Shown one piece after another: positions 22,123-55,065 of a stretch of 64,000 nt of DNA. The stretch lies in the sequence record MZ234025.1. One strand, 5' to 3'. The translations under genes and the position numbers were made by a program. This DNA is from Escherichia phage vB_EcoM-172859UKE1. How positions within the stretch are numbered: position 1 is the first letter of the stretch; each line of letters begins with the position of its first letter. The notes under the pieces are model-generated. The model was not told the DNA's origin, ran no database searches, and saw only the letters and a list, made by a program, of their open reading frames with translations.

Positions 22123-24834
22123 ATGAAAGAATTTTACTTAACGGTTGAACAGATTGGTGATTCAATTTTTGAACGTTACATCGATTCTAATGGCCGTGAA
22201 CGTACTCGTGAAGTAGAATATAAACCATCACTGTTTGCTCATTGTCCAGAAAGTCAGGCTACGAAATATTTCGATATCTACGGTAAGCCGTGTACTCGTA
22301 AGTTGTTCGCTAATATGCGTGATGCCTCCCAATGGATTAAACGCATGGAAGATATCGGACTTGAAGCACTTGGCATGGACGATTTCAAATTGGCGTATTT
22401 GTCTGACACTTATAACTATGAAATCAAATACGACCATACAAAAATTCGTGTGGCTAACTTCGACATCGAAGTAACATCTCCGGATGGGTTCCCTGAGCCG
22501 TCACAAGCAAAACATCCTATTGATGCTATCACCCATTATGACTCAATTGACGACAGGTTCTACGTATTTGATCTATTGAATTCTCCATATGGTAATGTAG
22601 AAGAATGGTCTATTGAAATCGCTGCTAAGCTTCAAGAACAAGGTGGTGATGAAGTTCCATCTGAAATTATCGATAAAATCATTTATATGCCGTTCGATAA
22701 CGAAAAAGAATTGTTGATGGAATATCTCAACTTCTGGCAACAGAAAACTCCTGTCATTTTGACTGGATGGAACGTTGAGTCATTTGATATTCCATATGTG
22801 TATAACCGAATCAAGAATATTTTTGGCGAATCTACTGCGAAACGTTTATCACCACATCGTAAAACTCGTGTTAAAGTTATCGAAAACATGTATGGTTCTC
22901 GTGAAATCATTACATTGTTCGGTATCTCTGTTCTTGATTACATTGACCTTTACAAAAAATTCTCTTTTACCAATCAACCGTCGTATTCTCTGGATTACAT
23001 TTCAGAATTTGAATTGAACGTTGGTAAACTGAAATATGACGGCCCTATTTCTAAGCTTCGTGAAAGCAATCACCAACGATATATTTCTTATAACATTATC
23101 GATGTGTATCGTGTATTGCAAATTGATGCTAAGCGTCAGTTCATCAACTTGAGCTTGGACATGGGTTATTATGCTAAGATACAGATTCAATCTGTGTTTA
23201 GCCCAATTAAAACATGGGATGCTATTATTTTTAATAGCCTTAAAGAACAAAACAAGGTGATTCCACAAGGTCGTTCGCATCCAGTTCAACCTTACCCGGG
23301 TGCTTTTGTTAAGGAACCTATTCCAAATCGATACAAATATGTGATGAGCTTCGACCTCACATCTCTGTATCCAAGCATCATTCGCCAAGTGAATATTAGC
23401 CCGGAAACAATAGCAGGAACGTTTAAAGTAGCTCCACTGCATGATTATATTAACGCAATCGCTGAACGTCCTTCAGATGTGTACAGTTGCTCTCCTAACG
23501 GCATGATGTATTATAAAGACCGTGATGGTGTAGTTCCAACTGAAATCACTAAAGTCTTTAATCAACGTAAAGAACATAAAGGTTATATGCTTGCGGCTCA
23601 ACGTAATGGTGAAATAATTAAAGAGGCATTGCATAATCCTAATCTTTCTGTTGACGAACCATTAGATGTTGATTATCGTTTCGACTTCAGTGATGAGATT
23701 AAAGAAAAGATTAAAAAGTTGTCCGCTAAGTCTCTTAATGAAATGTTGTTTAGAGCTCAACGTACTGAAGTTGCAGGTATGACTGCACAGATTAACCGTA
23801 AATTGCTCATCAACTCACTTTATGGTGCACTTGGCAACGTTTGGTTCCGTTATTATGATTTGCGTAATGCTACTGCAATCACAACATTCGGGCAAATGGC
23901 TTTACAGTGGATTGAACGTAAAGTTAATGAATACCTGAATGAAGTTTGTGGTACAGAAGGTGAAGCTTTCGTTCTTTATGGTGATACAGACTCCATTTAC
24001 GTATCTGCGGATAAAATTATTGATAAGGTTGGTGAATCTAAATTCCGTGATACTAACCATTGGGTAGACTTCTTAGATAAGTTTGCACGTGAACGTATGG
24101 AACCAGCTATTGATAGAGGTTTCCGTGAAATGTGTGAATACATGAACAATAAACAACACTTAATGTTCATGGACCGAGAAGCTATCGCTGGTCCTCCGCT
24201 TGGTTCTAAAGGTATTGGCGGATTTTGGACTGGTAAGAAACGTTATGCATTAAACGTGTGGGATATGGAAGGTACTCGTTACGCTGAGCCTAAACTCAAA
24301 ATCATGGGTCTAGAGACTCAGAAATCTTCGACTCCTAAAGCAGTACAGAAAGCTCTTAAAGAATGTATTCGTCGTATGCTTCAAGAAGGTGAAGAATCAT
24401 TACAAGAATATTTTAAAGAGTTTGAAAAAGAATTCCGTCAATTGAATTATATTAGCATCGCGTCGGTATCTTCTGCGAATAACATTGCTAAATATGACGT
24501 CGGTGGATTCCCTGGTCCCAAATGCCCGTTCCATATTCGTGGAATTCTGACGTATAACCGAGCTATCAAAGGTAATATTGATGCACCACAAGTTGTAGAA
24601 GGTGAAAAAGTATATGTTCTGCCTTTACGTGAAGGAAACCCATTCGGTGATAAATGTATCGCATGGCCTTCTGGTACTGAAATCACAGATTTAATTAAAG
24701 ACGATGTACTTCATTGGATGGACTACACTGTTCTCCTTGAGAAGACATTTATTAAACCACTTGAAGGATTCACATCAGCAGCTAAACTCGATTACGAGAA
24801 GAAAGCATCTCTGTTCGATATGTTTGATTTTTGA
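22123..24834 (+). CDS. 43: DNA polymerase gp43 (family B)
   Basis: 903 aa; exonuclease FDIE, polymerase motifs SLYPS and YGDTDS. Confidence 0.97.
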   Translation: MKEFYLTVEQIGDSIFERYIDSNGRERTREVEYKPSLFAHCPESQATKYFDIYGKPCTRKLFANMRDASQWIKRMEDIGLEALGMDDFKLAYLSDTYNYEIKYDHTKIRVANFDIEVTSPDGFPEPSQAKHPIDAITHYDSIDDRFYVFDLLNSPYGNVEEWSIEIAAKLQEQGGDEVPSEIIDKIIYMPFDNEKELLMEYLNFWQQKTPVILTGWNVESFDIPYVYNRIKNIFGESTAKRLSPHRKTRVKVIENMYGSREIITLFGISVLDYIDLYKKFSFTNQPSYSLDYISEFELNVGKLKYDGPISKLRESNHQRYISYNIIDVYRVLQIDAKRQFINLSLDMGYYAKIQIQSVFSPIKTWDAIIFNSLKEQNKVIPQGRSHPVQPYPGAFVKEPIPNRYKYVMSFDLTSLYPSIIRQVNISPETIAGTFKVAPLHDYINAIAERPSDVYSCSPNGMMYYKDRDGVVPTEITKVFNQRKEHKGYMLAAQRNGEIIKEALHNPNLSVDEPLDVDYRFDFSDEIKEKIKKLSAKSLNEMLFRAQRTEVAGMTAQINRKLLINSLYGALGNVWFRYYDLRNATAITTFGQMALQWIERKVNEYLNEVCGTEGEAFVLYGDTDSIYVSADKIIDKVGESKFRDTNHWVDFLDKFARERMEPAIDRGFREMCEYMNNKQHLMFMDREAIAGPPLGSKGIGGFWTGKKRYALNVWDMEGTRYAEPKLKIMGLETQKSSTPKAVQKALKECIRRMLQEGEESLQEYFKEFEKEFRQLNYISIASVSSANNIAKYDVGGFPGPKCPFHIRGILTYNRAIKGNIDAPQVVEGEKVYVLPLREGNPFGDKCIAWPSGTEITDLIKDDVLHWMDYTVLLEKTFIKPLEGFTSAAKLDYEKKASLFDMFDF

Positions 24835-24874: not shown

Positions 24875-25510
24875 ATGAAAACTACTCCTATTACTATCGC
24901 TATTGACGCAATCGTAAAACAAGCTTCATCTCTTGCCACTATGGCTAAAGTAATTAGTCAAAACCCTGCTCGTTATAATGCTATTCTAGAAACTCTTCGA
25001 CGCCCTGGACTTAGTAATTATGAAAGCCGGGTAATTATTACAGGTGTTGGTAAGAATGCTAATATCGCAACTAAAGCTTCCGAGACTTTTGCTTCACTAG
25101 GTATTCCTAGCATGTATTTGAATACCGGGCATTATTCTCATGGTGACGCAGGATTTATTGCACCTAATGATGTATTAGTTCACATCAGTCGTTCTGGTAA
25201 GACTGAAGAAATGATAGGTGTTGCTAAACATCTTCGTATGATTCGTCCTCAGGTTAAACAGATTCTGTTACATTGTAACCCTGACATTCCACAAGAATAC
25301 GAAGCTCTTTTTGATTATACGTTCTGTACCGGTATCGCGGTAGAAGTTGACGAGAACTCTTTAGCTCCGACAATGTCCACTACATTGTTGTTAGCGCTTA
25401 TCGATACGTTCGCTATCAACCTTTCGTCTGAACGTGGATTTACCTCTAATGATTTCCTTAAGTTCCATCCAGGCGGTGCACTAGGTGCCATGTTACGAGG
25501 CGAACAATGA
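24875..25510 (+). CDS. SIS-domain sugar-phosphate isomerase (KdsD/GutQ-like arabinose-5-phosphate isomerase-like)
   Basis: 211 aa; ...TGVGKNANIATKASETFASLGIPS..., YSHGDAGF, ISRSGKTEE and C-terminal HPGGALG resemble SIS domain of A5P isomerases. Confidence 0.75.
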   Translation: MKTTPITIAIDAIVKQASSLATMAKVISQNPARYNAILETLRRPGLSNYESRVIITGVGKNANIATKASETFASLGIPSMYLNTGHYSHGDAGFIAPNDVLVHISRSGKTEEMIGVAKHLRMIRPQVKQILLHCNPDIPQEYEALFDYTFCTGIAVEVDENSLAPTMSTTLLLALIDTFAINLSSERGFTSNDFLKFHPGGALGAMLRGEQ

Positions 25511-25650
25511 AAGCAATAACAATAGGACTTTTACTATTGATGCTTGTCATGACTATCTACTGGAGCTTAACGGCTCCGGTAATGATTCCAACACTTGTAA
25601 TTGGATGGATTATGATTGGACTACAAGCAAAGTATGAATGCTTTAACTAG
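25507..25650 (+). CDS. possible small hydrophobic peptide
   Basis: 47-aa ORF with two hydrophobic stretches, ATGA-coupled. Confidence 0.3.
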   Translation: MKAITIGLLLLMLVMTIYWSLTAPVMIPTLVIGWIMIGLQAKYECFN

Positions 25651-25691
25651 AATAGTGTACAATACTCCTACTTACCAATGAGGACTTCAAC

Positions 25692-27377
25692 ATGAAAAAA
25701 GCTGTTATTCTTGGTGCTGGATTGGCAACTCGTTTATATCCAATAACGCATCATATTCCTAAGGTGCTTGTTAACTATAAACAAGACACTATTCTGAGCA
25801 ATTTGTATACAATTTATTCTGACCTTGGCGCAGATGAAATTATTGTAGTAGTTCATTCAAAATTTGCTGAAACTGTTCGAGCTTATTGTGAGCAAGAAGG
25901 GTTCAATGTGACTATTCGTACAGTTGATGAAGCGTATGGTTCTGCTTATGCTCTTGCTAAATTACACAAAGATTTAGACGGCCATAATGTAATTGTTAAC
26001 TGGTGTGATATTATTCCTGATTTTGGTTCATGGTCTTGGAATGTTAACGCAATCTATGTTAAGGGTGACGAATGTCGATATAATTTCGACGGTGAAAATA
26101 TCACTAACGTAGGTTCAACAGGTGGTAATGTTGTAGGAATTTATCAGTTCAAAGACTGGGAATTCTATATGGGTTCTACCGATGAGGAAATTCATGAATA
26201 CTGCAAAGGACGTGATTTCGTAGAATTCCTTTACAGCGGCGCATTCAATAAATCAGAGCTTATGAATATCATCGACCTTGGTGATATGCCTAAACTTGAA
26301 AAGGCCCATGAAGTTCGTGAACTGAACCGTAGTTTTAATGCAGTTGAAATTGGCGAAGAAACTGTAACTAAATTCGCATTAACCGAACAGGGTCGAGCTC
26401 TTCAGAAAGATGAGATTTCGTGGTATTTGAAAGTGAAATCAGATTCAGTTCCTCAGTTAGTTTCTGTTAATGAAAATAACTTTGAAATGGAACGCATTAA
26501 AGGTAAGCCGGCATTTGAATATATTAAATCAAAATCAAGTCTTGCTCGTCCACAAATTGTTGATGCAATTTTAGATGCACTGAAATTCAGCACAGACACT
26601 TATTTTGTAAGTCCTGAAACTGTTCGTCGTGATTTCACTAAAGAATTCTATACGAAAGTTATTGATCGTTGTGAAAGCATTCAACCATTGATTGATTCAT
26701 TTGGTAAAATCACACACGTGAACTACACTAAGATTGGACGTCTGAAGCCAATGCTGAAACAAGCTTTAGAACACCTTATTCGTTATCATAACCGTTCTCA
26801 GGGACAGTACTCTGTTATTCATGGTGACCCGAACTTCAGTAATACTATGATTACTGATAACGGCGAAGTCAAGTTTATCGACCCTCGTGGATATTTTGGT
26901 GAAACCAAGATTTACGGGCCAAAATTGTATGATGAAGCTAAAGTGCTTTATGCTGTTTCAGGTTATGATGAATTCAATGCTAATCCGACCTGGGGGCAGT
27001 TTACTATTGATGAAACAACTTGTAATGTGACTATTAACATCAATCCATTAGTTTACAAATATGGAAAGATGAGTTCGTTTAACGAGTATCATCATTTGGC
27101 AGTGGCAATTATCTGGATTGCATTAGGTGGTTATTTCAAGAATAATCCACTTAAAGCGGTAGCCGCATATTATAAAGGTATGGAACTTCTGACTAAGCAA
27201 TTACGTAACATGGGCCGTGTACTTCAAGACGGCTCTATTAGTTATGACGTAGCAGAACCTGTAACGGCTACTCTGATTACAAAAAATCCTGGTAAATGGG
27301 TACTAACTGATAAAGAAACTGGTGTTTCCTATCGTCCAATCGGTGGCGATATCACTCATCAATGGGAACGAATCTAA
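25692..27377 (+). CDS. bifunctional sugar-1-phosphate nucleotidyltransferase / kinase-like protein
   Basis: N-terminal AVILGAGLATRLYPIT (NTP-transferase G-x-G-x-R); C-terminal HGDPNFSN and IDPRG resemble APH/anomeric sugar kinase catalytic motifs. Confidence 0.7.
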   Translation: MKKAVILGAGLATRLYPITHHIPKVLVNYKQDTILSNLYTIYSDLGADEIIVVVHSKFAETVRAYCEQEGFNVTIRTVDEAYGSAYALAKLHKDLDGHNVIVNWCDIIPDFGSWSWNVNAIYVKGDECRYNFDGENITNVGSTGGNVVGIYQFKDWEFYMGSTDEEIHEYCKGRDFVEFLYSGAFNKSELMNIIDLGDMPKLEKAHEVRELNRSFNAVEIGEETVTKFALTEQGRALQKDEISWYLKVKSDSVPQLVSVNENNFEMERIKGKPAFEYIKSKSSLARPQIVDAILDALKFSTDTYFVSPETVRRDFTKEFYTKVIDRCESIQPLIDSFGKITHVNYTKIGRLKPMLKQALEHLIRYHNRSQGQYSVIHGDPNFSNTMITDNGEVKFIDPRGYFGETKIYGPKLYDEAKVLYAVSGYDEFNANPTWGQFTIDETTCNVTININPLVYKYGKMSSFNEYHHLAVAIIWIALGGYFKNNPLKAVAAYYKGMELLTKQLRNMGRVLQDGSISYDVAEPVTATLITKNPGKWVLTDKETGVSYRPIGGDITHQWERI

Positions 27378-27763
27378 TGCACCGTGTAGAAAACATGCTT
27401 AATCTTTGTTTTGATGTCGATGATTGTATAACAGAGTGGAATAACAATCGTGATTACGTGAACTTCAAACCAGACGTCGAAATGGTGTCTGCCATTAATG
27501 CTCTGTATGATGCAGGGCATACCATAACGCTTTACACTGCTCGCGGTATGAAGTCAGTAGGTCCTGGACGTATAGCAATTGACATTCTCCCAAGTCTGAT
27601 TCAGAACTTGGCAAACATTGGCTTGAAGTACCATAATTTGCTAACACATAAACCAGTATATGATTGGATTATCGACGACAAAGCTATGCGTCCTGACGAA
27701 TTCAAAGCTCTTATGAATAAAGGCGAATTCGAAACATTTAAACCATATAAACCGAATCTATAA
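27377..27763 (+). CDS. HAD-superfamily phosphatase
   Basis: FDVDDCIT (DxDxT motif I) near N-terminus; ~128 aa, size of KdsC/GmhB-type phosphatases; TAATG coupling. Confidence 0.7.
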   Translation: MHRVENMLNLCFDVDDCITEWNNNRDYVNFKPDVEMVSAINALYDAGHTITLYTARGMKSVGPGRIAIDILPSLIQNLANIGLKYHNLLTHKPVYDWIIDDKAMRPDEFKALMNKGEFETFKPYKPNL

Positions 27764-27820: not shown

Positions 27821-28981
27821 ATGAATACTTTTAAAATCGGAACGAATTTTGATTTAGCTCTTCTTGATAAAATCGTAGAGCTCAATAAAACTTATCCTAA
27901 TAGCTTGATAAATGAAGTATACGGCTCTACAAGAGAAATGGCTTTTGTAGCAGCCAGACCTGATTTTAGGCTTCCTGACGTTGACAAAAAGATGTTAGAA
28001 GATTACGTTAAACGTTGTAACGAATTAGGTATTTGCTTTAACTATACACTCAACACGATAAATCCTGGTTCAAAAAGAGAACTAGTTGAGTGGAAGAAGA
28101 AAGCTATTCAGGATTATGTTCAGTATCTTTGGTCAATAGGCGTATGGCGTATTACTATCGCTAACCCTGTTGTTATGGAAATTGTTCGTGAAGTCAATAA
28201 AGACATTGAGATTGAAGTTTCAACAATTCTACATGTCGATGCTGTAACTCAAATCAAATACTTGCATGACCAATATAATATCAAAAAGGTCTGCTGTGGA
28301 ATTCATAAGAACCGTTCAGTTTCTTTCCTGAAGCGTGCAGCAGAGTTTTGCAATAAGAACAATATAATATTTGAAGTTCTTGTAAATGAGTTCTGTTCTA
28401 ATGCTGGTAAAGGGTATACAACACATTGTAGCTATCGTGACTCTTGCTATATTTTCCATAGTACTGATGTTACAGCTGATGATGCTAAATCCTTAAACGG
28501 ATATCCTATGCAGCACTGTATTAAAGCTCGTGATACAGACCCATTTAACTGGTTGAGAACTCGTTTTGTTCGTCCTCAAGATTTGAAACTTTATAATGAT
28601 ATTGGTATCACTCAATTCAAAGTTTCAGGACGTACAGGTAGCACAGACTACATTTTGAAAGTTCTTGAAGCATACGCTTCTGAAAAGTTTGAAGGTAATT
28701 TGTTAGAACTGTGGAAGCCTTTAGAGACTATTTTCACTCTTGAAAACGAAACTGAGTTTTCACATACAGTAAATATTGAAACCTCTTTGTTAGATGGCTT
28801 TTTAGAAAAAAGGTGGTTCAGACATCCAGATTTCGATTGTGCTAATGAAATCTGCGGGACGACGTGTACATATTGTGAAAGATATTATAAACGTCAATTA
28901 TCTAAAAACGGGTTAGCAGAAAACTCTATATCTATTATTGATATAACTAACTCTGATGACGCTTTGAGGTACCCGGAATGA
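27821..28981 (+). CDS. U32-family-like Cys-rich protein (possible Fe-S enzyme)
   Basis: 386 aa; FNYTLNT, EVLVNEFCS...HCSYRDSC, FKVSGRTGS resemble U32 motifs; C-terminal CxxxCxxxCxYC. Confidence 0.55.
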   Translation: MNTFKIGTNFDLALLDKIVELNKTYPNSLINEVYGSTREMAFVAARPDFRLPDVDKKMLEDYVKRCNELGICFNYTLNTINPGSKRELVEWKKKAIQDYVQYLWSIGVWRITIANPVVMEIVREVNKDIEIEVSTILHVDAVTQIKYLHDQYNIKKVCCGIHKNRSVSFLKRAAEFCNKNNIIFEVLVNEFCSNAGKGYTTHCSYRDSCYIFHSTDVTADDAKSLNGYPMQHCIKARDTDPFNWLRTRFVRPQDLKLYNDIGITQFKVSGRTGSTDYILKVLEAYASEKFEGNLLELWKPLETIFTLENETEFSHTVNIETSLLDGFLEKRWFRHPDFDCANEICGTTCTYCERYYKRQLSKNGLAENSISIIDITNSDDALRYPE

Positions 28982-29260: not shown

Positions 29261-29977
29261 ATGGGAAAACATAACACAATGAAATATATCAAAGCCGCAG
29301 ATTTTCAAACCGCATTTAAAGCAGTCAATCGTGAAATTTTAGAAAACCCGGAATTCGTAACTGATTCTCGTATTGGACGTTGTAATGAAATTGGGTCTAT
29401 GACAGTAGTTGTTGACACTCCATCATCATTCAAAATGACCGACCCACGTATTAACCGCATCTCTTATGAATATGCCGAAGACTTCTGGAAGTTTATGATT
29501 TCTGGTGGTACCAACGCAGAAGAAGCGTTTAAGGCATATCCTAATGTCGCTAAATTTATTTCTAAACCAAAATCAGATGTTTTGCCGGCGAACTTCAACA
29601 CTTTCTATGGTCCTCGCATTGCGGCCCAATTACCAGCTCTTCTAAAAGAACTTAAAGAGAAGCCTAACTCCCGAAGAGTTGTGTTCCAAATTCTAGAAAG
29701 TTCTGATCAGGCTTTGCTTGATTCAGACGAAACGCTTGAATATCCATGTACTGACTCAGTGACTTATTATATTCGTGATGGTAAGCTTTATACCCACTGT
29801 CATATGCGTTCTCAGAACTGTGCTGTTGTTATGCAGTTGGATTTTTATCTCCAAGGAAAATTACTTCATTATATCGCTAACGAATGTGGTGTAGAAGTTG
29901 GTGATTATACTCATACCATGGTAAGTGCCCATGTGTTTGAACGTGATTTTGATTATGTTAAAGGATTCCTTGACTAA
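29261..29977 (+). CDS. 42: dCMP hydroxymethylase gp42
   Basis: 238 aa thymidylate-synthase-fold protein; catalytic region EYPCTDSVTYYIRDGKL...HMRSQN parallels T4 gp42; lacks TS PCH motif. Confidence 0.85.
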   Translation: MGKHNTMKYIKAADFQTAFKAVNREILENPEFVTDSRIGRCNEIGSMTVVVDTPSSFKMTDPRINRISYEYAEDFWKFMISGGTNAEEAFKAYPNVAKFISKPKSDVLPANFNTFYGPRIAAQLPALLKELKEKPNSRRVVFQILESSDQALLDSDETLEYPCTDSVTYYIRDGKLYTHCHMRSQNCAVVMQLDFYLQGKLLHYIANECGVEVGDYTHTMVSAHVFERDFDYVKGFLD

Positions 29978-30876
29978 TGGCTATTTTCCGCGTACCTATT
30001 TTGAGTATGCGGTCTTATGAAACTGGACAGTATGCTATCCTTAAGGATGGCAACTTCCAACTTCATTTGCACCGTGCTAATCCGGGTGATGTGATTACAT
30101 ATCCACGTAATGCATCTGATATTAAAGAATGCGAACGTCTTTTTCCAGAATTTAAGTTTGTTCCATTATGGTATAAAGATAACGCGTATAACACTCGTAA
30201 ATATTTCTGGTCTGAAAATGAATTTGTGGTTGATTCATTAATTGCTTATTATGATTGTGATTTTCTAATCACAGATATCACTGGATATGACGGCGCTTTT
30301 GATGTAGAATTCAATTTCAATATCACTGCAGACCCTAATAAACCACGTTTTTATATTGACGAATTCTTAAAAACCGATATGTTGTCGGTTAATCGTTCAC
30401 TTCAAACTACTGTGTTGAATGAACGTCAAAAAGAAGTGCTGGTTAACGCAGGTGCAGATGGTAATAAGATTATCGTAACACAGAAAGTTATACGTCCTTC
30501 CATCATGCAGCGTCTTGTAGGTGATTTGGCTCCTATTCATCTAGATGGTATTTTTCATCCATTTCGAATTAGTGACCCATGCTATCGTTTTGAACAAGTG
30601 GTTGAATGTGCAATTCAATTAGGTCAACCGCTTTATATAACCGATCCAAATAATAGCTTCGACAGAAATAAGTATCCTGAAGAAGCGCTGATTCGAATTT
30701 TTAAACCAACTAAAACTGAGTACTATCAAATTCTTAAAGGACGTCCGAAGATTCAATATTTCGAAAATCCTGAAGAAGTATTCCATCCAGGTCTTGGCGA
30801 GTTCATCTACTTTAATGCTTTAATTTCTTCGCCGTATAATATACCTAAATACGAAGATGTTGTAATCGAGGAATAA
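29977..30876 (+). CDS. hypothetical protein occupying the beta-glucosyltransferase locus (candidate DNA sugar transferase)
   Basis: 299-aa ORF ATGA-coupled to gene 42; no similarity recognised to T4 beta-gt. Confidence 0.6.
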   Translation: MAIFRVPILSMRSYETGQYAILKDGNFQLHLHRANPGDVITYPRNASDIKECERLFPEFKFVPLWYKDNAYNTRKYFWSENEFVVDSLIAYYDCDFLITDITGYDGAFDVEFNFNITADPNKPRFYIDEFLKTDMLSVNRSLQTTVLNERQKEVLVNAGADGNKIIVTQKVIRPSIMQRLVGDLAPIHLDGIFHPFRISDPCYRFEQVVECAIQLGQPLYITDPNNSFDRNKYPEEALIRIFKPTKTEYYQILKGRPKIQYFENPEEVFHPGLGEFIYFNALISSPYNIPKYEDVVIEE

Positions 30877-30877
30877 A

Positions 30878-31426
30878 ATGGCTAAAATTATTTTAGTAGA
30901 TGGCCCGGATAATGCTGGTAAAACAACTTTCATTAATGACATAATGGAAATTAGTGAAAGATATGTAAAGATTGATTTCCCTAAAAGAACGGTTGATGGA
31001 CGTTTCGATGTTAAGTCTCGAAATGAAGTTGGCTGTTTCGAAACGATGTTGAATTATTTAGACCCTACTAAGATTTATCTATTAGACCGTGGATATATTA
31101 GTAACTGGGTTTATGGACGTATTCGTCAAGATGCGGACTCGGTTCTTGACGTTTATGAACAGGATTATGTTCGTCTTTGCCAAAACCATGATGTGTTCAC
31201 AATTATTTTAACACGTAACGAAATGACTGAAAGTTTTGAAGACGACCTTATTACTTTGTCTTCATTCGGTTTTAATACAGTCATTTCACATTTTGAAGAG
31301 TTTGCAATTCATAACAAAATCCAAACGTATCAATTACTTAATCATGATGGTGCTAACAAAGTTATAGGATTTAATGCAAGCGAACGTAATGATTTGATTA
31401 CAGAAATCATCAAATGGGCTCGTTAA
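30878..31426 (+). CDS. P-loop kinase (NMP/sugar kinase-like)
   Basis: N-terminal Walker A GPDNAGKTT and LDRGY region typical of small P-loop kinases. Confidence 0.6.
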   Translation: MAKIILVDGPDNAGKTTFINDIMEISERYVKIDFPKRTVDGRFDVKSRNEVGCFETMLNYLDPTKIYLLDRGYISNWVYGRIRQDADSVLDVYEQDYVRLCQNHDVFTIILTRNEMTESFEDDLITLSSFGFNTVISHFEEFAIHNKIQTYQLLNHDGANKVIGFNASERNDLITEIIKWAR

Positions 31427-31524: not shown

Positions 31525-32697
31525 ATGTCTGATTTAAAATCTCGTCTGATTAAAGCTTCTACTTCTAAAATGACTGCAGACTTGACTAAGTCTAAGCTGT
31601 TTAATAATCGTGATGAAGTCCCTACTCGTATTCCGATGTTGAATATTGCATTAGGTGGTGCACTGAATGCAGGGTTGCAATCAGGCTTGACTATTTTTGC
31701 TGCACCTTCTAAACATTTTAAAACATTGTTTGGACTGACCATGGTTGCAGCATATATGAAGAAATATAAAGATGCAATTTGTTTGTTCTATGATTCAGAA
31801 TTTGGTGCTTCAGAATCTTATTTTCGTTCAATGGGTGTTGATTTAGACCGTGTAGTTCATACTCCGATTCAATCTGTCGAACAACTTAAAGTTGATATGA
31901 CTAATCAGCTTGACGCGATTGAACGCGGTGATAAAGTTATTATCTTTATCGATTCAATCGGTAATACTGCATCTAAGAAAGAAACTGAAGATGCATTGAA
32001 CGAGAAAGTTGTAGGTGATATGTCTCGTGCTAAGGCACTTAAATCTCTTTTCCGTATTGTGACCCCGTATCTGACTATTAAAGATATTCCGTGTGTTGCA
32101 ATTAACCATACCGCAATGGAAATTGGCGGATTGTATCCTAAAGAGATTATGGGCGGTGGTACAGGTATTCTTTATTCTGCCAACACAGTGTTTTTTATCT
32201 CTAAACGTCAGGTTAAAGAAGGTACAGAATTGACCGGTTATGACTTCACGTTGAAAGCAGAAAAATCTCGCACTGTTAAAGAAAAATCTACTTTCCCAAT
32301 CACGGTTAATTTTGATGGTGGTATCGACCCATTCAGCGGCTTGCTAGAAATGGCAACTGAAATTGGTTTTGTAGTTAAGCCTAAAGCTGGTTGGTATGCT
32401 CGCGAATTCCTTGACGAAGAAACAGGTGAAATGATTCGTGAAGAAAAATCATGGCGTGCTAAAGCTACTGATTGTGTAGAATTCTGGGGACCTTTGTTTA
32501 AACACAAACCTTTCCGAGATGCAATTGAAACTAAATATAAACTAGGTGCTATCTCTTCTATTAAAGAAGTTGATGACGCTGTTAACGACCTTATTAATTG
32601 CAAAGCAACAACTAAAGTTCCGGTTAAAACTTCTGATGCTCCGTCTGCAGCAGATATAGAAAACGACCTTGACGAAATGGAAGATTTCGATGAATAA
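31525..32697 (+). CDS. uvsX: recombinase UvsX (RecA-like)
   Basis: 390 aa; MSDLKSRLIKASTSK... and Walker A GPSKHFKT closely match T4 UvsX. Confidence 0.95.
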   Translation: MSDLKSRLIKASTSKMTADLTKSKLFNNRDEVPTRIPMLNIALGGALNAGLQSGLTIFAAPSKHFKTLFGLTMVAAYMKKYKDAICLFYDSEFGASESYFRSMGVDLDRVVHTPIQSVEQLKVDMTNQLDAIERGDKVIIFIDSIGNTASKKETEDALNEKVVGDMSRAKALKSLFRIVTPYLTIKDIPCVAINHTAMEIGGLYPKEIMGGGTGILYSANTVFFISKRQVKEGTELTGYDFTLKAEKSRTVKEKSTFPITVNFDGGIDPFSGLLEMATEIGFVVKPKAGWYAREFLDEETGEMIREEKSWRAKATDCVEFWGPLFKHKPFRDAIETKYKLGAISSIKEVDDAVNDLINCKATTKVPVKTSDAPSAADIENDLDEMEDFDE

Positions 32698-46748: not shown

Positions 46749-47204
46749 ATGATTACTATTGGTGAAATTAAGCGTGTATCAACTGCATCCCGGTCTAAAG
46801 CCGCAGGTCGTCTGGTTGAAGTGGTAGGACTTCGCACAAATGGCATGGGACGCATTAAAGAAGTTAAAGTTCGAATCATTCCTAGTTTTGGACGTCAGGA
46901 TACTCAGCACGCTTACGTAAGTCCTAAATTCTTGGAAACTCCTGTGAGCGCTCATTTTGCTTCTACTGAACCTAATGCACAGTTCAAATGGGCCTTGTGT
47001 AAAGGTGTTGAATTCCAGACTGATAAAGAATTTGACTTCATCGATGAATACGGTTATCCAAGCAAAACTGATACTATGTGCGGCTTCATTAGTGACCAAT
47101 GGGTTGAAGATGGTGAAAAGTTATACAATATCGTATTCTTAGGTGACTTCCGAGTTGTTAAAGAATCTGAAATCACTCGTTATGTGTCTCCTCGTAAAGC
47201 TTAA
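46749..47204 (+). CDS. hypothetical protein, tandem paralog family member
   Basis: 151 aa; shares STASRSKAAGRLVEV and C-terminal ISDQWVEDGEKLYNIVFLGDF with the next ORF. Confidence 0.5.
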   Translation: MITIGEIKRVSTASRSKAAGRLVEVVGLRTNGMGRIKEVKVRIIPSFGRQDTQHAYVSPKFLETPVSAHFASTEPNAQFKWALCKGVEFQTDKEFDFIDEYGYPSKTDTMCGFISDQWVEDGEKLYNIVFLGDFRVVKESEITRYVSPRKA

Positions 47205-47213
47205 GGAATTATT

Positions 47214-47633
47214 ATGAATATTGTAAATCTCTCTACAGGTGATTACGTATATGTATCTGTTGCTTCTCGCTCTAAAGTTGCCGGGAAGTTGGTTGAAGTT
47301 CTTTCTGTGAGTGATCCGGTTTTTGGTCGTAACCAAGTTAAAGTTCGTGACGCCGATGGTAACATTGGTTACGTTAAAAGCCAATTTATTGAACCAGAAG
47401 AAAAAGCGTTCAAATGGAAACTGGGCAGATCAGTTTTAGTTGTAAAAGACTACGAGTTCACCATTGCCGCTGCGACAGATGGAACACCGTGGACAACGAA
47501 TCAAGTTGCTGGTTTTATTTCGGACCAATGGGTGGAAGATGGTGTTAAGCTTTATAACATTGTTTTCGCTGGGCAGTTCATGGTAGTTCCTGAGTTCCAA
47601 ATCAAAAAATATTGTCCAGCATCTTTTGCATAA
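47214..47633 (+). CDS. hypothetical protein, tandem paralog family member
   Basis: 139 aa; SVASRSKVAGKLVEV and ISDQWVEDGVKLYNIVFAGQF. Confidence 0.5.
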   Translation: MNIVNLSTGDYVYVSVASRSKVAGKLVEVLSVSDPVFGRNQVKVRDADGNIGYVKSQFIEPEEKAFKWKLGRSVLVVKDYEFTIAAATDGTPWTTNQVAGFISDQWVEDGVKLYNIVFAGQFMVVPEFQIKKYCPASFA

Positions 47634-49522: not shown

Positions 49523-49540
49523 GGGCTTCGGCCCTTTTTG
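49521..49540 (+). terminator. rho-independent terminator
   Basis: GGGC-ttcg-GCCC hairpin followed by TTTTT. Confidence 0.7.
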
Positions 49541-49585: not shown

Positions 49586-51403
49586 ATGATTAAAAATGAA
49601 ATTAAGGTATTGTCAGATGTAGAACATATTAAGAAACGCAGTGGCATGTATATTGGTTCTTCGGCCAAAGAAGCCCACGAGCGTTTTTTGTTTGGTAAAT
49701 ATCAACAAGTTGAATATGTTCCTGGTCTGGTTAAATTAATCGATGAGATTATTGACAACTCGGTTGATGAAGCTATTCGTACATCATTTAAGTTTGCAAA
49801 TAAAATTGATGTGCAAATTAAAAATAATCAAGTTTCGGTGGAAGATAACGGACGTGGTATTCCTCAAGGTTTAGTTACCGACCAAAATGGTGAACAGATT
49901 CCTGGGCCTGTAGCAGCCTGGACTATTCCAAAGGCTGGTGGTAACTTTGGCGATGACTCTGAACGCAAGACTGGTGGTATGAACGGCGTCGGGAGTAGTT
50001 TAACTAATATCTTCTCTACGTTGTTTACAGGCATCACGTCAGATGGCGAAAATGAAATCACTGTTAACTGTTCAAACGGAATGGAAAACAAATCATGGTC
50101 TTCTAAGAAATCTAAAGGTAAAGGCACTAAAGTAATCTTCACTCCTGATTTCACTTCATTTGAAGAGCATAATTTATCTCAAATTTATTTAGATATTACT
50201 TTAGACCGACTTCAAACATTGGCAGTCGTTTATCCTGACATCAAGTTCACATTTAATGGTAAAAAGGTTGATGGTAATTTTAAACGATTTGCTAAACAAT
50301 TTGGTGAAGATAACATCATTCAAGAAAATGATAAAGTCTCTATAGCATTCACAACATCACCAGATGGCTTCCGTCATTTAACTTATGTGAATAACATCCA
50401 TACTAAAAATGGTGGTCATCATGTTGAATGCGTAATGGATGATATCTGCGAACATCTTTTGCCAGGTATTAAAAAGAAATATAAGGGTATTGAAGTCACT
50501 AAAGCTCGTGTTAAAGAATGTCTCACAATGTTGATGTTTATTAGAGACATGAGCAATATGCGTTTTGATTCTCAGACTAAAGAACGTTTAACGTCAACGT
50601 ATGGTGATATTCGTAATCATATCCAATTAGATGCTAAGAAAATTGCTCAGGCACTTCTTAAAAACGAAGCCTTGATTATGCCTATTGTTGAAGCAGCATT
50701 AGCTCGTAAATTGGCGGCAGAAAAGGCTGCGGAAACTAAAGCAGCTAAAAAGGCAACTAAAGCTAAGGTTCATAAGCATATTAAAGCTAACCAATGTGGT
50801 AAAGACGCAGATACGACATTGTTCTTAACAGAAGGTGATTCGGCAATTGGTTATCTCATTGATGTTCGTGACCGTGAACTACACGGCGGATTCCCATTAC
50901 GTGGTAAGGTGATGAATAGCTGGGGTATGTCGTATGCTGATATGATGAAGAACAAAGAGCTCTTTGATATCTGTGCTATCACAGGTCTTATTCTTGGTGA
51001 AAAGGCAGAGAATACGAACTATCGTAATATTGCAATTATGACCGATGCCGATCATGATGGTCTTGGAAGTATTTATCCGGCTTTGCTTGCTTTCTTTAGT
51101 AATTGGCCCGAATTGTTCGAACAAGGACGTATTCGCTTTGTTAAAACGCCTGTAATTATTGCACAAATTGGCAAAACTCAAAAATGGTTTTATACTGTAG
51201 CTGAGTATGAAGAAGTTAAAGATACACTGCCTAAGCATAGTATTCGATACATCAAGGGATTGGGCTCCCTTGAAAAGTCAGAATATCGTGAAATGATTCA
51301 GAATCCTGTGTACGACGTAGTTAAACTTCCTGAAAATTGGAAAGAACTCTTTGAAATGTTGTTGGGTGATGATTCAGAACTTCGTAAAGAATGGATGTCC
51401 TAA
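49586..51403 (+). CDS. 39: DNA topoisomerase II large subunit (gp39 fused with gp60-equivalent C-terminus)
   Basis: 605 aa; GHKL ATPase motifs plus TOPRIM-like region in one uninterrupted ORF. Confidence 0.9.
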   Translation: MIKNEIKVLSDVEHIKKRSGMYIGSSAKEAHERFLFGKYQQVEYVPGLVKLIDEIIDNSVDEAIRTSFKFANKIDVQIKNNQVSVEDNGRGIPQGLVTDQNGEQIPGPVAAWTIPKAGGNFGDDSERKTGGMNGVGSSLTNIFSTLFTGITSDGENEITVNCSNGMENKSWSSKKSKGKGTKVIFTPDFTSFEEHNLSQIYLDITLDRLQTLAVVYPDIKFTFNGKKVDGNFKRFAKQFGEDNIIQENDKVSIAFTTSPDGFRHLTYVNNIHTKNGGHHVECVMDDICEHLLPGIKKKYKGIEVTKARVKECLTMLMFIRDMSNMRFDSQTKERLTSTYGDIRNHIQLDAKKIAQALLKNEALIMPIVEAALARKLAAEKAAETKAAKKATKAKVHKHIKANQCGKDADTTLFLTEGDSAIGYLIDVRDRELHGGFPLRGKVMNSWGMSYADMMKNKELFDICAITGLILGEKAENTNYRNIAIMTDADHDGLGSIYPALLAFFSNWPELFEQGRIRFVKTPVIIAQIGKTQKWFYTVAEYEEVKDTLPKHSIRYIKGLGSLEKSEYREMIQNPVYDVVKLPENWKELFEMLLGDDSELRKEWMS

Positions 51404-51426
51404 GCTCCTTCGGGAGCTTCATTTTA
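51403..51426 (+). terminator. rho-independent terminator
   Basis: AGCTCC-ttcg-GGAGCT hairpin followed by T-rich run. Confidence 0.6.
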
Positions 51427-51445: not shown

Positions 51446-52546
51446 ATGAAAGTTATGTTTATCCCATCTCGTGCAGCCCCATTTAATCCTGACCGTGTAC
51501 AAGGTGGCCTTGAAGCAGTACATTTAAATGTGTTGAAATATCTTGTGTCCATCGGTGCTGATATTGATTATATCGGCTTTGATAATGACACGTTTGGTGA
51601 CTGGAAAGTTACACACCATCCTGTTGGTCATCTGGCTAAATTCAGTCTAGGTATGAGTTATACTATGGCTCGTAAGATTGTTGAACTAGCCAGCATTAAT
51701 GAATACGATTTCGTTGTTACAATGGAACCGACCAAACTAACGGTCCAAGCAATTAAAGATGCTGGACTCTCTAAAGTTCATAAGAATTTTATGGCTACAC
51801 CGTTTGAACCAGTGTCTCGTGGTATTGTTCAAATTTGGGATCAGACTATCCAGATTCACAAGAACGGTGGGAAGAGCTATGCTCCTACTAAAGCATTCCG
51901 TGAATTTGAACGTAAATATTGTCATATGACTTCAGCTCTTACTGACAAAATTGATTATGACTACTGGCGTGAAAATCCATTATTTGAACCTGATGACTAC
52001 CCGGTTATTTGTTTGAATGAAAAACCTGAAGTTCTTCCGGCAACTGAGTTGATTATTAGTGCTCAACGTTATGACACTAAGATGCGTCGCACTGATGTTG
52101 CTCTTGAAGCAATTAAAGCACTAGGCGAAAATGGTATTGGTTATTGTCCAAGCAAATGGGCACCACCAGCTAAATATCCTGTTATTATTGATGCTCCACA
52201 CAGTGAAATCATGGAACGTCTTAAAACAGCTAAAGCACTTATTAATACATGCCCTGACACAGGTACGGTAGAGAATAGTTCTATTGAAGCTATCTCTAAA
52301 GGTGTCCCTGTAATCCAGTTAGTTTTTAAGGATTATCCTCATGCGACATTCGAATACGATCCAGATACTGTGCGTGTAGAAATTGATTCCTCTACTCCTA
52401 AGAAAGAAGTAGTTGCGCTTTACACAAAAGCTGTATTAGAATTCACTGACACATACGAAGCTCGAGTTAAACGTGCTGAAGCAGTATGGAAGAAGTATAA
52501 CCGAGATGCAGTTGTTGCGATGTGGGATAAAATCTTCACAGCGTAA
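51446..52546 (+). CDS. putative GT-B-fold glycosyltransferase
   Basis: 366 aa; MKVMFIPS start and C-terminal TGTVENSSIEAISKGVPVIQ resembling GT4-type motif; weak inference. Confidence 0.5.
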   Translation: MKVMFIPSRAAPFNPDRVQGGLEAVHLNVLKYLVSIGADIDYIGFDNDTFGDWKVTHHPVGHLAKFSLGMSYTMARKIVELASINEYDFVVTMEPTKLTVQAIKDAGLSKVHKNFMATPFEPVSRGIVQIWDQTIQIHKNGGKSYAPTKAFREFERKYCHMTSALTDKIDYDYWRENPLFEPDDYPVICLNEKPEVLPATELIISAQRYDTKMRRTDVALEAIKALGENGIGYCPSKWAPPAKYPVIIDAPHSEIMERLKTAKALINTCPDTGTVENSSIEAISKGVPVIQLVFKDYPHATFEYDPDTVRVEIDSSTPKKEVVALYTKAVLEFTDTYEARVKRAEAVWKKYNRDAVVAMWDKIFTA

Positions 52547-52638: not shown

Positions 52639-52839
52639 ATGAGAACATATAACGTGGACTTGGAACTTTTTGATAAAGCAGTGCTCCGGGAATTCCGGCT
52701 TATCCAAAGATTTTTTGATATCGAGTCAGCAGAGTCCTTTAAAGAACGCTTTAAAGAAATTAGATATAAAATACAAACCGATACAGCTACTAAAGAAGAA
52801 CTTCTTGAAGTAGCAGAAATTTTTAAACGTAACTTGTGA
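52639..52839 (+). CDS. hypothetical protein (rIIA.1 position)
   Basis: 66-aa ORF immediately upstream of rIIA. Confidence 0.45.
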   Translation: MRTYNVDLELFDKAVLREFRLIQRFFDIESAESFKERFKEIRYKIQTDTATKEELLEVAEIFKRNL

Positions 52840-52851
52840 TGAGAGAAAAAT

Positions 52852-55065
52852 ATGATTATTGAAACGGCTAAAGAAACGATTATTGGTTCAGGCGGTAAGA
52901 GCACAGCATTTACTATTCAAGGCAATAGCAAAGTTTATAAGATTTTGTCTAATGACCTTTATACAAACAAAGAATTGGCTTGTGTACGTGAATTAATCAC
53001 AAACTGTATCGATGGACAAATTCTTAACGGTTGCACTGATAAGTTTATTGTTCAGGCTCCAGGTCGTTTAGACCCACGTTTTGTAGTTCGAGACTTTGGT
53101 CCTGGTATGAGTGATTTCACCATTCGAGGTAATGACGAAGAGCCAGGAATCTATAACTCATATTTTGCTTCAACTAAAACATCGAGTAACGATTTCATTG
53201 GTGGATTCGGACTCGGCTCTAAAGCTCCACTAGCATATACCGATACGTTTAACCTTACGTCTTATCACAACGGTGAAGTTCGTGGTTACGTAATCTACCA
53301 AGATGACACGGGTCCACAAATTAAGCCAACCTTTGTAGATAAGATGGGCCCTGATGACCGTACGGGTGTAGAAGTAGTTGTACCGGTTAACCCAGAAGAT
53401 TTTGAAAAGTTCGCATCCGAAATTGCTTATGTTATGCGTCCTCTCGGCGATATTGCAGAAGTTCGTGGTGTTAAAGATATTAAATACTTCCCGGAATTCG
53501 ATGATGTTTATTTAGCCAAGGAAGCTCCATGGGGTGAACGTGGTAATATCATGGCTGTTTATGGCGGTATTGTATATCCAATCGGAAGTGTTATTAAAGA
53601 ACAAACATGGATGATGACACGATGCACTACAGCTTATATTAAATTCCCAATGGGTGAACTAGATGTTGCTCCGTCTCGCGAAGCATTGTCATTTGATAAA
53701 CGTACAGTAGCAAATATCCATAAACGCGTTGCAGAAATCGATGCTAAATTGTTCGCTGAAGATTCTAAGAAATGGATTGATTGTAAATACCCACGACATG
53801 TGTTCCGCGAAATTGATTCTCTTGGCTATACCGCTCGTAAATACATGGAAAAGGCCGGGTCTAATATTGAATCACTGAAATACTCTAAAGAACAACTAAC
53901 TTATTCTGAGTTGTACAAACGTTTTAAAATGGGACCTGAGTGGTGTAATCTTGGTGTCGTATACGATATCGTTGAATCCCCTCGTCTTCGTCGTATTCGT
54001 GAAAGTGGTAGCTCATCATCAACCATTTCAATTAACAGCCTGATTGGCATTAACATTAAAAACGTTGAAATTGTTATTGACGATGTTAAGGGACGCGTTC
54101 CATTAATGCGAGCTCTTAATTCAATTGAAATGTCTAAAGACGAGGTTAAATTATCCGGTAAAGTTCCACGCGGTTTTGGTAAAAGCGTACTATTCGTTGA
54201 CCCTACAGACGAAGACGCAATGAAACTTCTGGAACGCCTTAAAGTTATCTTTGATGGCGACAACATTAACATGTACAAGACTTCAGAGCTTTTACAAATC
54301 GTTAAGCCATGGATTGAAGTCAGGAAACGGACTAATGAGCCTCGTCCTAAATCCCCGAGTGCTCATCGATTCTTTAAGAATGAAAACGATGTTTGGGTAT
54401 CAGAAGACCTCTTTATTCCGGCAAGTGAAGCAGATGAAATCCAAGGTTATGCTATAGTTCGTAATCGTTCTAATGCTGAATGTCTTGACGCAGATAAAGG
54501 TTGGTTGAACTATGACTCCAATTTCTTGACCCGTATTGCTGATTTGTCAGGTATTAAAGAGTTCACTGTAGTTCGTCCACAGATTGCTAAGAAAGTTCGT
54601 AAACTTGGTGAAGTAGAATGCTTGTTCGAAAAATCAATTAATGACTATATTACGCTAATTGATAAAGTGGATTATGATGAGTATGTATCACCAAGTCGTA
54701 GAGCACAGCCTTATTTGAATCATATTACTCGTAACGAAGAGCTTAACTTCCTTAGTAAGTATTTTAGCTCTAAGAACAAAGAAATCAGTAAAGACTTTGC
54801 AAAACTCTCAACAGTAAATAATCGTTGGGGATGGAATCGATTCGCAGGTGCTACTAATACAGACCTGAATAAGAAGTTAGAATTGTGTGCTAAAATTTTC
54901 GATAAGCTTAAAGATAATGCTTACGATAATGATGATAAAATGGTTATTGAATTCGAAACCAATTATCATATTGTGTCAGAATACATGGGACGACGTGGTA
55001 CTCTTTCCAAAGAACAGGTCGCTCAAATCGTTAAATTCATGAAGGCCGTGGAAGCGGCCAAATAA
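52852..55065 (+). CDS. rIIA: rIIA membrane-associated protein
   Basis: 737 aa; N-terminal ATPase-like region ...ELITNCID...GPGMSD...FIGGFGLGSKA closely matches T4 rIIA. Confidence 0.9.
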   Translation: MIIETAKETIIGSGGKSTAFTIQGNSKVYKILSNDLYTNKELACVRELITNCIDGQILNGCTDKFIVQAPGRLDPRFVVRDFGPGMSDFTIRGNDEEPGIYNSYFASTKTSSNDFIGGFGLGSKAPLAYTDTFNLTSYHNGEVRGYVIYQDDTGPQIKPTFVDKMGPDDRTGVEVVVPVNPEDFEKFASEIAYVMRPLGDIAEVRGVKDIKYFPEFDDVYLAKEAPWGERGNIMAVYGGIVYPIGSVIKEQTWMMTRCTTAYIKFPMGELDVAPSREALSFDKRTVANIHKRVAEIDAKLFAEDSKKWIDCKYPRHVFREIDSLGYTARKYMEKAGSNIESLKYSKEQLTYSELYKRFKMGPEWCNLGVVYDIVESPRLRRIRESGSSSSTISINSLIGINIKNVEIVIDDVKGRVPLMRALNSIEMSKDEVKLSGKVPRGFGKSVLFVDPTDEDAMKLLERLKVIFDGDNINMYKTSELLQIVKPWIEVRKRTNEPRPKSPSAHRFFKNENDVWVSEDLFIPASEADEIQGYAIVRNRSNAECLDADKGWLNYDSNFLTRIADLSGIKEFTVVRPQIAKKVRKLGEVECLFEKSINDYITLIDKVDYDEYVSPSRRAQPYLNHITRNEELNFLSKYFSSKNKEISKDFAKLSTVNNRWGWNRFAGATNTDLNKKLELCAKIFDKLKDNAYDNDDKMVIEFETNYHIVSEYMGRRGTLSKEQVAQIVKFMKAVEAAK

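Follow-up and report, generated by a model that had tools for sequence, protein, structure and literature searches.

A probable second DNA arabinofuranosyltransferase gene of Mosigvirus, located between the topoisomerase gene and rIIA.1

The gene found at 51446..52546 (+) of the window, by which we mean the whole stretch of 64,000 nucleotides of Escherichia phage vB_EcoM-172859UKE1 DNA that was analysed (record MZ234025.1), quite probably encodes the second DNA arabinofuranosyltransferase of Mosigvirus, an enzyme that would add β-D-arabinofuranose (β-D-Araf) to the first, α-linked Araf carried by the 5-hydroxycytosine (5hoC) of the phage DNA. This reading agrees with the proposal of Lee et al. 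2026, the exact acceptor and linkage of the 366-aa enzyme being those that we infer. Established here are the identity of the gene, its fold, UDP as the ligand of a 97%-identical ortholog, the occurrence of the complete pathway in the window, and the phyletic pattern. Between the two roles that the first-pass annotation had suggested for the protein, a relocated α-gt-type enzyme or a second transferase adding a further sugar unit, it is the latter that gene content, phyletic pattern and literature best back. The gene is already known: it was a candidate arabinosyltransferase in 2018, the structures of the HY126 protein were released in 2025 and it was placed in the pathway in 2025-2026. The present work contributes a correct annotation and, with the match between copy number and sugar number, a comparative argument of independent origin; it is not a discovery.

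The ORF runs from ATG to stop over 366 codons (366 aa). It is a real gene, since 366 stop-free codons at the base composition of the window have a chance of about 1e-12 per start, the protein is conserved at full length in Acinetobacter phages (41-44% identity) and in metagenomic relatives (33-39% identity), and the sequence is under purifying selection (dN/dS of 0.05 against RB69 and of 0.10 against locus L005). Its position between the topoisomerase gene and rIIA, as first annotated, is borne out with the refinement that rIIA.1 lies between the ORF and rIIA, and the accompanying remark that T4 lacks a glycosyltransferase at this place is right, as rIIA.1 and gene 60 of T4 are only 54 bp apart; Mosigvirus has the 366-aa ORF in that interval. 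The locus is composed as follows.

49586-51403: fused gp60+39 topoisomerase large subunit, 605 aa, upstream of the 366-aa ORF
51402..51419 (+): terminator-like hairpin, AAGCTCC-TTCG-GGAGCTT with a T-rich tail behind it, situated in the 42-nt spacer that separates the ORF from the topoisomerase gene
51446..52546 (+): the 366-aa ORF
52639-52839: rIIA.1, downstream of the 366-aa ORF
52852-55065: rIIA, after rIIA.1

The hairpin is only suggestive, as it is a single such site and shuffles yield as many. The search for a promoter-like site in the 42-nt spacer gave none and a MotA-box-like sequence stands at 49537, ahead of the topoisomerase gene, from which we infer that the 366-aa ORF is probably co-transcribed with the topoisomerase gene, the timing of its expression being deduced in the same way. 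The sequence AAGG precedes its start codon. A recent horizontal acquisition of the ORF was considered and rejected: its GC content is 0.396 against 0.370 for the window, and both GC and GC3 resemble those of the neighbouring phage genes. Two observations concern the upstream side of the locus. The topoisomerase large subunit is a single ORF, as in RB69, whereas T4 has split genes, the translational bypass of gene 60 and the mobA insertion. In the Mosigvirus Escherichia phage NRG-P0074 (locus L002, 2161-2958), a homing endonuclease gene is found between the topoisomerase and transferase genes, where the window has the 42-nt spacer only.

The window belongs to Mosigvirus (RB69-like) and its gene order is that of RB69; over the 13 kb around the gene, identity reaches 99.4% with Shigella phage SSE1 and 98.3% with Escherichia phage HY126. 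The 366-aa ORF is the ortholog, at the same locus, of RB69 ORF003c/gp3 (96.4% identity, 13 substitutions), which Thomas et al. 2018 had picked out as an arabinosyltransferase, then thought to act on hmC. It is 97% identical (10 substitutions, E 7.5e-247) to the glycosyltransferase of phage HY126, whose structures, released on 2025-07-16, are described in the Foldseek library as the apo form (PDB 9IQZ) and the form with UDP (9IR0); a nucleotide-sugar donor is thus indicated through this ortholog. Copies that are 95-99.7% identical to the ORF are present in about 155 Mosigvirus-type records and are mostly annotated 'hypothetical protein', and some of the Acinetobacter homologs bear the annotation 'putative DNA alpha-glucosyltransferase'. 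No match to the protein was obtained in Pfam, even at E<=10, or in NCBIfam, and PHROG 8302 ('unknown function') matches it over residues 1-366 with an E of 2e-219. An HMMER scan of 1.84 billion representative proteins returned 11 at E<=0.001, all but one of them clear members of the family, a further large protein search provided one more usable sequence, and scans of IMG/VR and metagenome contigs for the family recovered Mosigvirus and Acinetobacter-phage copies only. As judged from these searches, the family is a very narrow lineage restricted to phages wherever the context is known. One of its distant members, P0010 (394 aa, JGI contig Ga0489998_000752, L017 3040-4224; 33-35% identity), lies in a fragment of a T4-like phage beside DNA ligase and phage DsbA genes, which makes a third genomic location of the family, on a short contig.

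A second glycosyltransferase, as the ORF had been called in the first-pass annotation, implies a first one, and the 299-aa ORF at 29977-30876 (GT1 hereafter) is the candidate for it. It belongs to a module situated at 24.9-31.4 kb, between the DNA polymerase gene (22123-24834) and uvsX (31525-32697), which is the gp55-gp45 module of RB69.

24875..25510 (+): SIS-domain arabinose-5-phosphate isomerase (RB69 gp55); Pfam SIS, E 8e-10, role from the literature
25692..27377 (+): bifunctional sugar kinase and NDP-sugar pyrophosphorylase (RB69 gp52:53; HY126 AfhE), which makes UDP-arabinofuranose; Pfam NTP_transferase in the N-terminal part and weak kinase-family matches in the C-terminal part, role from the literature
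27362..27763 (+): small HAD-like phosphatase (RB69 gp51; HY126 AfhF), by position and size; role from the literature only
27821..28981 (+): U32-family protein (RB69 gp50); Pfam Peptidase_U32, role in the pathway unexplained
29261..29977 (+): thymidylate-synthase homolog, 5-hydroxy-dCMP synthase; Pfam Thymidylat_synt, 99% identity to RB69 ORF048c
29977..30876 (+): GT1, 299 aa, putative first arabinosyltransferase (RB69 gp46:47); 99.3% identity to RB69 ORF046c+047c
30878..31426 (+): small nucleotide kinase (RB69 gp45); weak P-loop Pfam matches only

According to citations of He et al. 2026, on HY126, AfhE and AfhF make UDP-arabinose, and the literature gives AfhF the conversion of Araf-1,5-bisphosphate into Araf-1-phosphate. 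The protein at 27362..27763 has no Pfam match, and the syntenic gene of Acinetobacter phage DLP1 is annotated HAD-like. Likewise, the DLP1 gene syntenic to 30878..31426 is annotated thymidylate kinase, to which RB69 gp45 has structural matches (Lee et al. 2026). The U32-family protein of the RB69 module is listed in the same study just as a 'sugar or heterocycle reductase', and its counterpart in the module of Shewanella phage Thanatos-1 is TH1_065. As for GT1, scans against Pfam and NCBIfam gave no match, and neither BLASTP nor hhalign related it significantly to the 366-aa ORF.

The nature of the base and of the sugar departs from what had been supposed from the sequence, that is, a transferase working on hmC DNA or on mono-glycosylated DNA. 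The modified base is 5-hydroxycytosine, so that neither hmC nor glucosyl-hmC DNA is the substrate. The ThyA homolog of the window shares 99% identity with the enzyme of RB69, for which Lee et al. 2026 demonstrated the synthesis of 5-hydroxy-dCMP by experiment, against a mere 25% with T4 gp42. Moreover, Asn replaces the Asp conserved in gp42 and ThyA in the RS-x-D motif, in agreement with the D169N signature that these authors describe. The sugar is D-arabinofuranose: by NMR, the modification of RB69 is β-D-Araf-(1→3)-α-D-Araf-O5-dC, and the DNA of DLP3 carries a further β-D-Araf-(1→5) (Lee et al. 2026). In this work RB69 gp3 is labelled 'beta-arabinosyltransferase 2' and gp46:47 is assigned as the first arabinosyltransferase, both as proposals. 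The family does have a demonstrated activity, as gp76 and gp77 of DLP3 together use UDP-Araf in vitro to add arabinose to the DNA of RB69; each is inactive alone, both are needed for the third arabinose, and they are inactive on bare 5hoC DNA and extend DNA that is already arabinosylated (Lee et al. 2026).

The comparative argument comes from the distribution of the two transferase candidates. Matches to GT1 occur in 348 phage records, from Mosigvirus, Dhakavirus/JS98, Klebsiella, Enterobacter, Serratia LC53, Yersinia, Proteus, Shewanella Thanatos and Acinetobacter phages. The family of the 366-aa ORF, even at E<=1, occurs in 211 records of Mosigvirus-type and Acinetobacter phages only, the Mosigvirus records having a single copy each and those of Acinetobacter phages two; in the groups that carry this family, GT1 is found in similar numbers. 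At the same threshold, no member of the family was detected in Thanatos, LC53, JS98 or the Klebsiella phages. In DLP1 the order of the module is isomerase, pyrophosphorylase/kinase, HAD, ThyA-like, GT1, kinase, homolog 1 and homolog 2. The 366-aa ORF shares 43% and 41% identity with these homologs, which have 58% identity between them, and is a co-ortholog of both. When the copies of the family are set against the published number of arabinoses per cytosine, the following correspondence appears.

Thanatos: 1 arabinose per cytosine, 0 copies of the family
RB69, NP (mono:di = 1:4) and Bas46/Bas47: 2 arabinoses per cytosine, 1 copy
DLP3: 3 arabinoses per cytosine, 2 copies

In Thanatos, the RB69-type phages and DLP3, the family thus has as many copies as there are sugars after the first one. 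Since the DNA of Thanatos is arabinosylated without any member of the family, a first-sugar transferase must exist outside it, and since the copy number tracks the number of arabinoses, the 366-aa ORF is best read as the transferase of the second sugar. A possible homolog in Thanatos, TH1_065 (378 aa, at the syntenic position), was tried and rejected: hhalign and BLASTP were negative and the protein belongs to the U32 family. Had the homology held, the phyletic argument would have been broken. In JS98 (L018, 2437-3024), which has GT1 and no second transferase, about 590 bp without annotation separate rIIA.1 from gene 39, at the place that the ORF occupies in Mosigvirus, and tblastn at E<=1 revealed no remnant of the transferase gene.

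The rule of one gene for one sugar is not proven by this correspondence, because gp76 and gp77 of DLP3 worked only together. This joint requirement speaks for a reading in which the 366-aa protein is needed for di-arabinosylation only within an obligate complex, for example with GT1 or as a DNA-positioning homo-oligomer, and the label H of the example chain of 9IQZ, a hint of several copies in the asymmetric unit of the crystal, goes in the same direction. We consider such an arrangement improbable, though the likeliest of the alternatives: the single Mosigvirus copy keeps all the family-invariant residues, the UDP-binding C-terminal motif included, the HY126 ortholog binds UDP by itself in the crystal, and the 20 kb that separate the gene from GT1 offer no hint of a tight complex, none of these points being decisive.

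The literature is in conflict over the GT1 family, which is the first arabinosyltransferase for Lee et al. 2026 and a UDP-xylose pyrophosphorylase for the authors of the Thanatos paper, in which TH1_063 (L019:6995-7897; 47.5% identical to the GT1 of the window) shows this activity in vitro and not transfer. Because of this report the first transferase is not firmly assigned, and one may ask whether the 366-aa protein could itself be the base-directed arabinosyltransferase acting on the 5-hydroxyl of 5hoC, GT1 being then devoted, for example, to sugar activation. The naming of ORF003c as arabinosyltransferase by Thomas et al. 2018 would suit this possibility, and a transferase activity of any GT1 homolog was not found in the literature searched. 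The arabinosylated DNA of Thanatos, the copy number that follows the count of extra sugars and the inactivity of the DLP3 homologs on 5hoC DNA, on the other hand, all speak against it and leave it with little probability, slightly less than that of the obligate complex. According to citations of Mahler et al. 2025, the loss of 'the arabinosyltransferase Aat' in Bas46 sensitises the phage to a plasmid-borne defence; Aat may be either of the two transferases considered here.

The 366-aa protein is a GT-B enzyme with two Rossmann-like β/α/β domains, between which lies the cleft of the active site, and with a helix at the C-terminus that goes back to the N-domain; its closest structural neighbours are members of GT4: the tll1591 α-1,2-glucosyltransferase, the sucrose-phosphate synthase 6KIH, BshA, PimB', PimA and WaaG, at an identity of just 11-15%. 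The GT4-like GT-B fold that had been proposed from the sequence therefore holds, and the E-x7-E-like motif that went with it is only approximately right: in the segment concerned (TGTVENSSIEAISKGVPVIQ, residues 272-291) the glutamates that never vary are E276 and E281, so that the motif is E-x4-E. Sequence models of GT4 fail to recognise the protein, a point that weighs against the reading preferred here. The models Glycos_transf_1, Glyco_trans_1_4 and Glyco_transf_4 gave no significant match to the 366-aa ORF, sub-threshold matches of GT4 type appeared in relatives only (GT4-conflict, E 0.0028; Glyco_trans_1_4, E 0.013), and profile searches of the alignments A1 and A2 against the PDB sequences reached the HY126 ortholog only and not the GT4 enzymes.

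In the family alignments used for this purpose (A1 to A3), the residues invariant down to 35% identity are G20-G21, E94, R125, Q207-R208-D210, R214, N267-T-C, G273-T-x-E276, E281-A-I and H299-A-T-x-E-x-D-P, and the Mosigvirus copies have no substitution at any of these positions. With its full-length homology and the conservation of these residues, the 366-aa ORF belongs to the phage DNA arabinofuranosyltransferase family (PHROG 8302). Thomas et al. 2018 had aligned Gly-20, Glu-281 and an arginine numbered 207 (R208 here) with functional residues of α-gt-like enzymes. UDP-Araf is likely to be bound in the C-terminal domain by R208, R214 and the loop and helix N267-T-C...G273-T-V-E276-x4-E281, the role of each residue being deduced from the alignments and the fold.

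Because the closest solved structures all act on lipids, small molecules or glycans, an acceptor other than DNA has also to be weighed, for instance a lipid of the host envelope, a precursor of LPS or a protein, in the manner of PimA, WaaG or BshA; one metagenomic relative moreover carries in its source the name 'glycosyltransferase involved in cell wall biosynthesis'. Such an acceptor is very unlikely. The family occurs only in phages that have the 5hoC/UDP-Araf module and lies inside this module in the Acinetobacter phages, the DLP3 homologs act on DNA in vitro, and the roughly 11 clusters among 1.84 billion proteins are all phage-like where the context is known. The relocated T4 α-gt-type glucosyltransferase acting on hmC DNA, which the shared GT-B fold, T4-like phage background and DNA-modifying role and the annotation of some Acinetobacter homologs could have favoured, is effectively refuted by the comparisons with the T4 enzymes: α-gt and β-gt are absent from the top 60 structural neighbours, and against the family profile or the 366-aa ORF each of them has an hhalign probability of 0.2% and a BLASTP E of at least 5.

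The pathway that we propose for the second-transferase reading would proceed in four steps. The dC of the phage would be replaced by 5-hydroxy-dC through the action of the ThyA-like synthase (29261-29977), while UDP-D-arabinofuranose would be made from a pentose-phosphate intermediate by the products of the genes at 24875-27763. The putative first transferase (29977-30876) would attach α-D-Araf to the O5 of the base, and the two-domain GT-B enzyme of 366 aa, acting on duplex DNA, would then link a second Araf to the first one through a β-1,3 bond. The resulting β-D-Araf-(1→3)-α-D-Araf-O5-dC would be a bulky modification shielding the genome from nucleases.

One further point weighs against the main reading: the closest structural neighbours of the enzyme are all retaining enzymes of GT4/GT5, and the linkage assigned to it in the literature is β. 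A β linkage formed on a GT4-like scaffold requires either a donor that is the β-anomer, with a retaining enzyme, or an inverting enzyme. If the donor is UDP-α-D-Araf, the protein might be an inverting transferase built on a GT4-like fold with a shortened E-x4-E motif, a suggestion that we regard as doubtful. By analogy, the invariant Glu94 of the N-domain could serve as general base in such an inverting enzyme; the general base of T4 β-gt is Asp100. Were the inverting character true, this family of about 11 clusters among 1.84 billion proteins would deserve a CAZy family to itself, one of transferases that extend glycans on DNA.

The enzyme can be placed among known systems as follows. Among the closest, besides RB69 gp3 and the HY126 glycosyltransferase, are gp77 and gp76 of DLP3, compared here through their DLP1 orthologs ADLP1_075 and ADLP1_074, which belong to the same family over their full length and have the invariant motifs in common. 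DLP3 and DLP1 have two paralogs inside the module whereas Mosigvirus has one copy 20 kb away from it, and the reaction shown for gp76 and gp77 is the addition of the third sugar (β-1,5) by both proteins, whereas the second sugar is proposed for the Mosigvirus enzyme. The GT4 transferases are retaining enzymes with an E-x7-E motif; the 366-aa protein differs by its E-x4-E motif, by the β product that the literature assigns to it and by its acceptor, a sugar on DNA. The T4 α- and β-glucosyltransferases are, like it, GT-B enzymes that act after replication in a T4-like phage to transfer a UDP-sugar onto a modified cytosine, but they put glucose onto the hydroxymethyl of the base and not arabinose onto a sugar, and their genes adjoin gene 47 and gene 42 and not the topoisomerase gene and rIIA.1. 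The 'TAGT' of T2/T6-type phages (gentiobiosyl-hmC) follows an analogous logic, as a second transferase that extends a first sugar to a disaccharide; according to its descriptions in the literature, its sugar, base and protein family are different.

Arabinosylated 5-hydroxycytosine is a recently defined hypermodification of phage DNA, by which many restriction enzymes are stopped, as are some CRISPR systems. As the number of sugars appears to tune the protection, the assignment of genes to sugars helps to predict the sensitivity of therapeutic Mosigvirus phages to bacterial defences.

Two tandem duplications were met in the course of these comparisons. In Shigella phage JK45 (L016, 2694-3104), whose record is labelled Tequatrovirus and whose region is itself Mosigvirus-like, an extra ORF of 411 nt straight after the transferase gene matches the C-terminal part of the transferase and represents a partial tandem duplication of its gene. 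In the window, two adjacent motB-like ORFs (46749-47204 and 47214-47633; 151 and 139 aa) have similar C-terminal halves; this pair, which T4 does not have, corresponds to motB and ORF010c ('similar to motB') of RB69 and is a tandem duplication.
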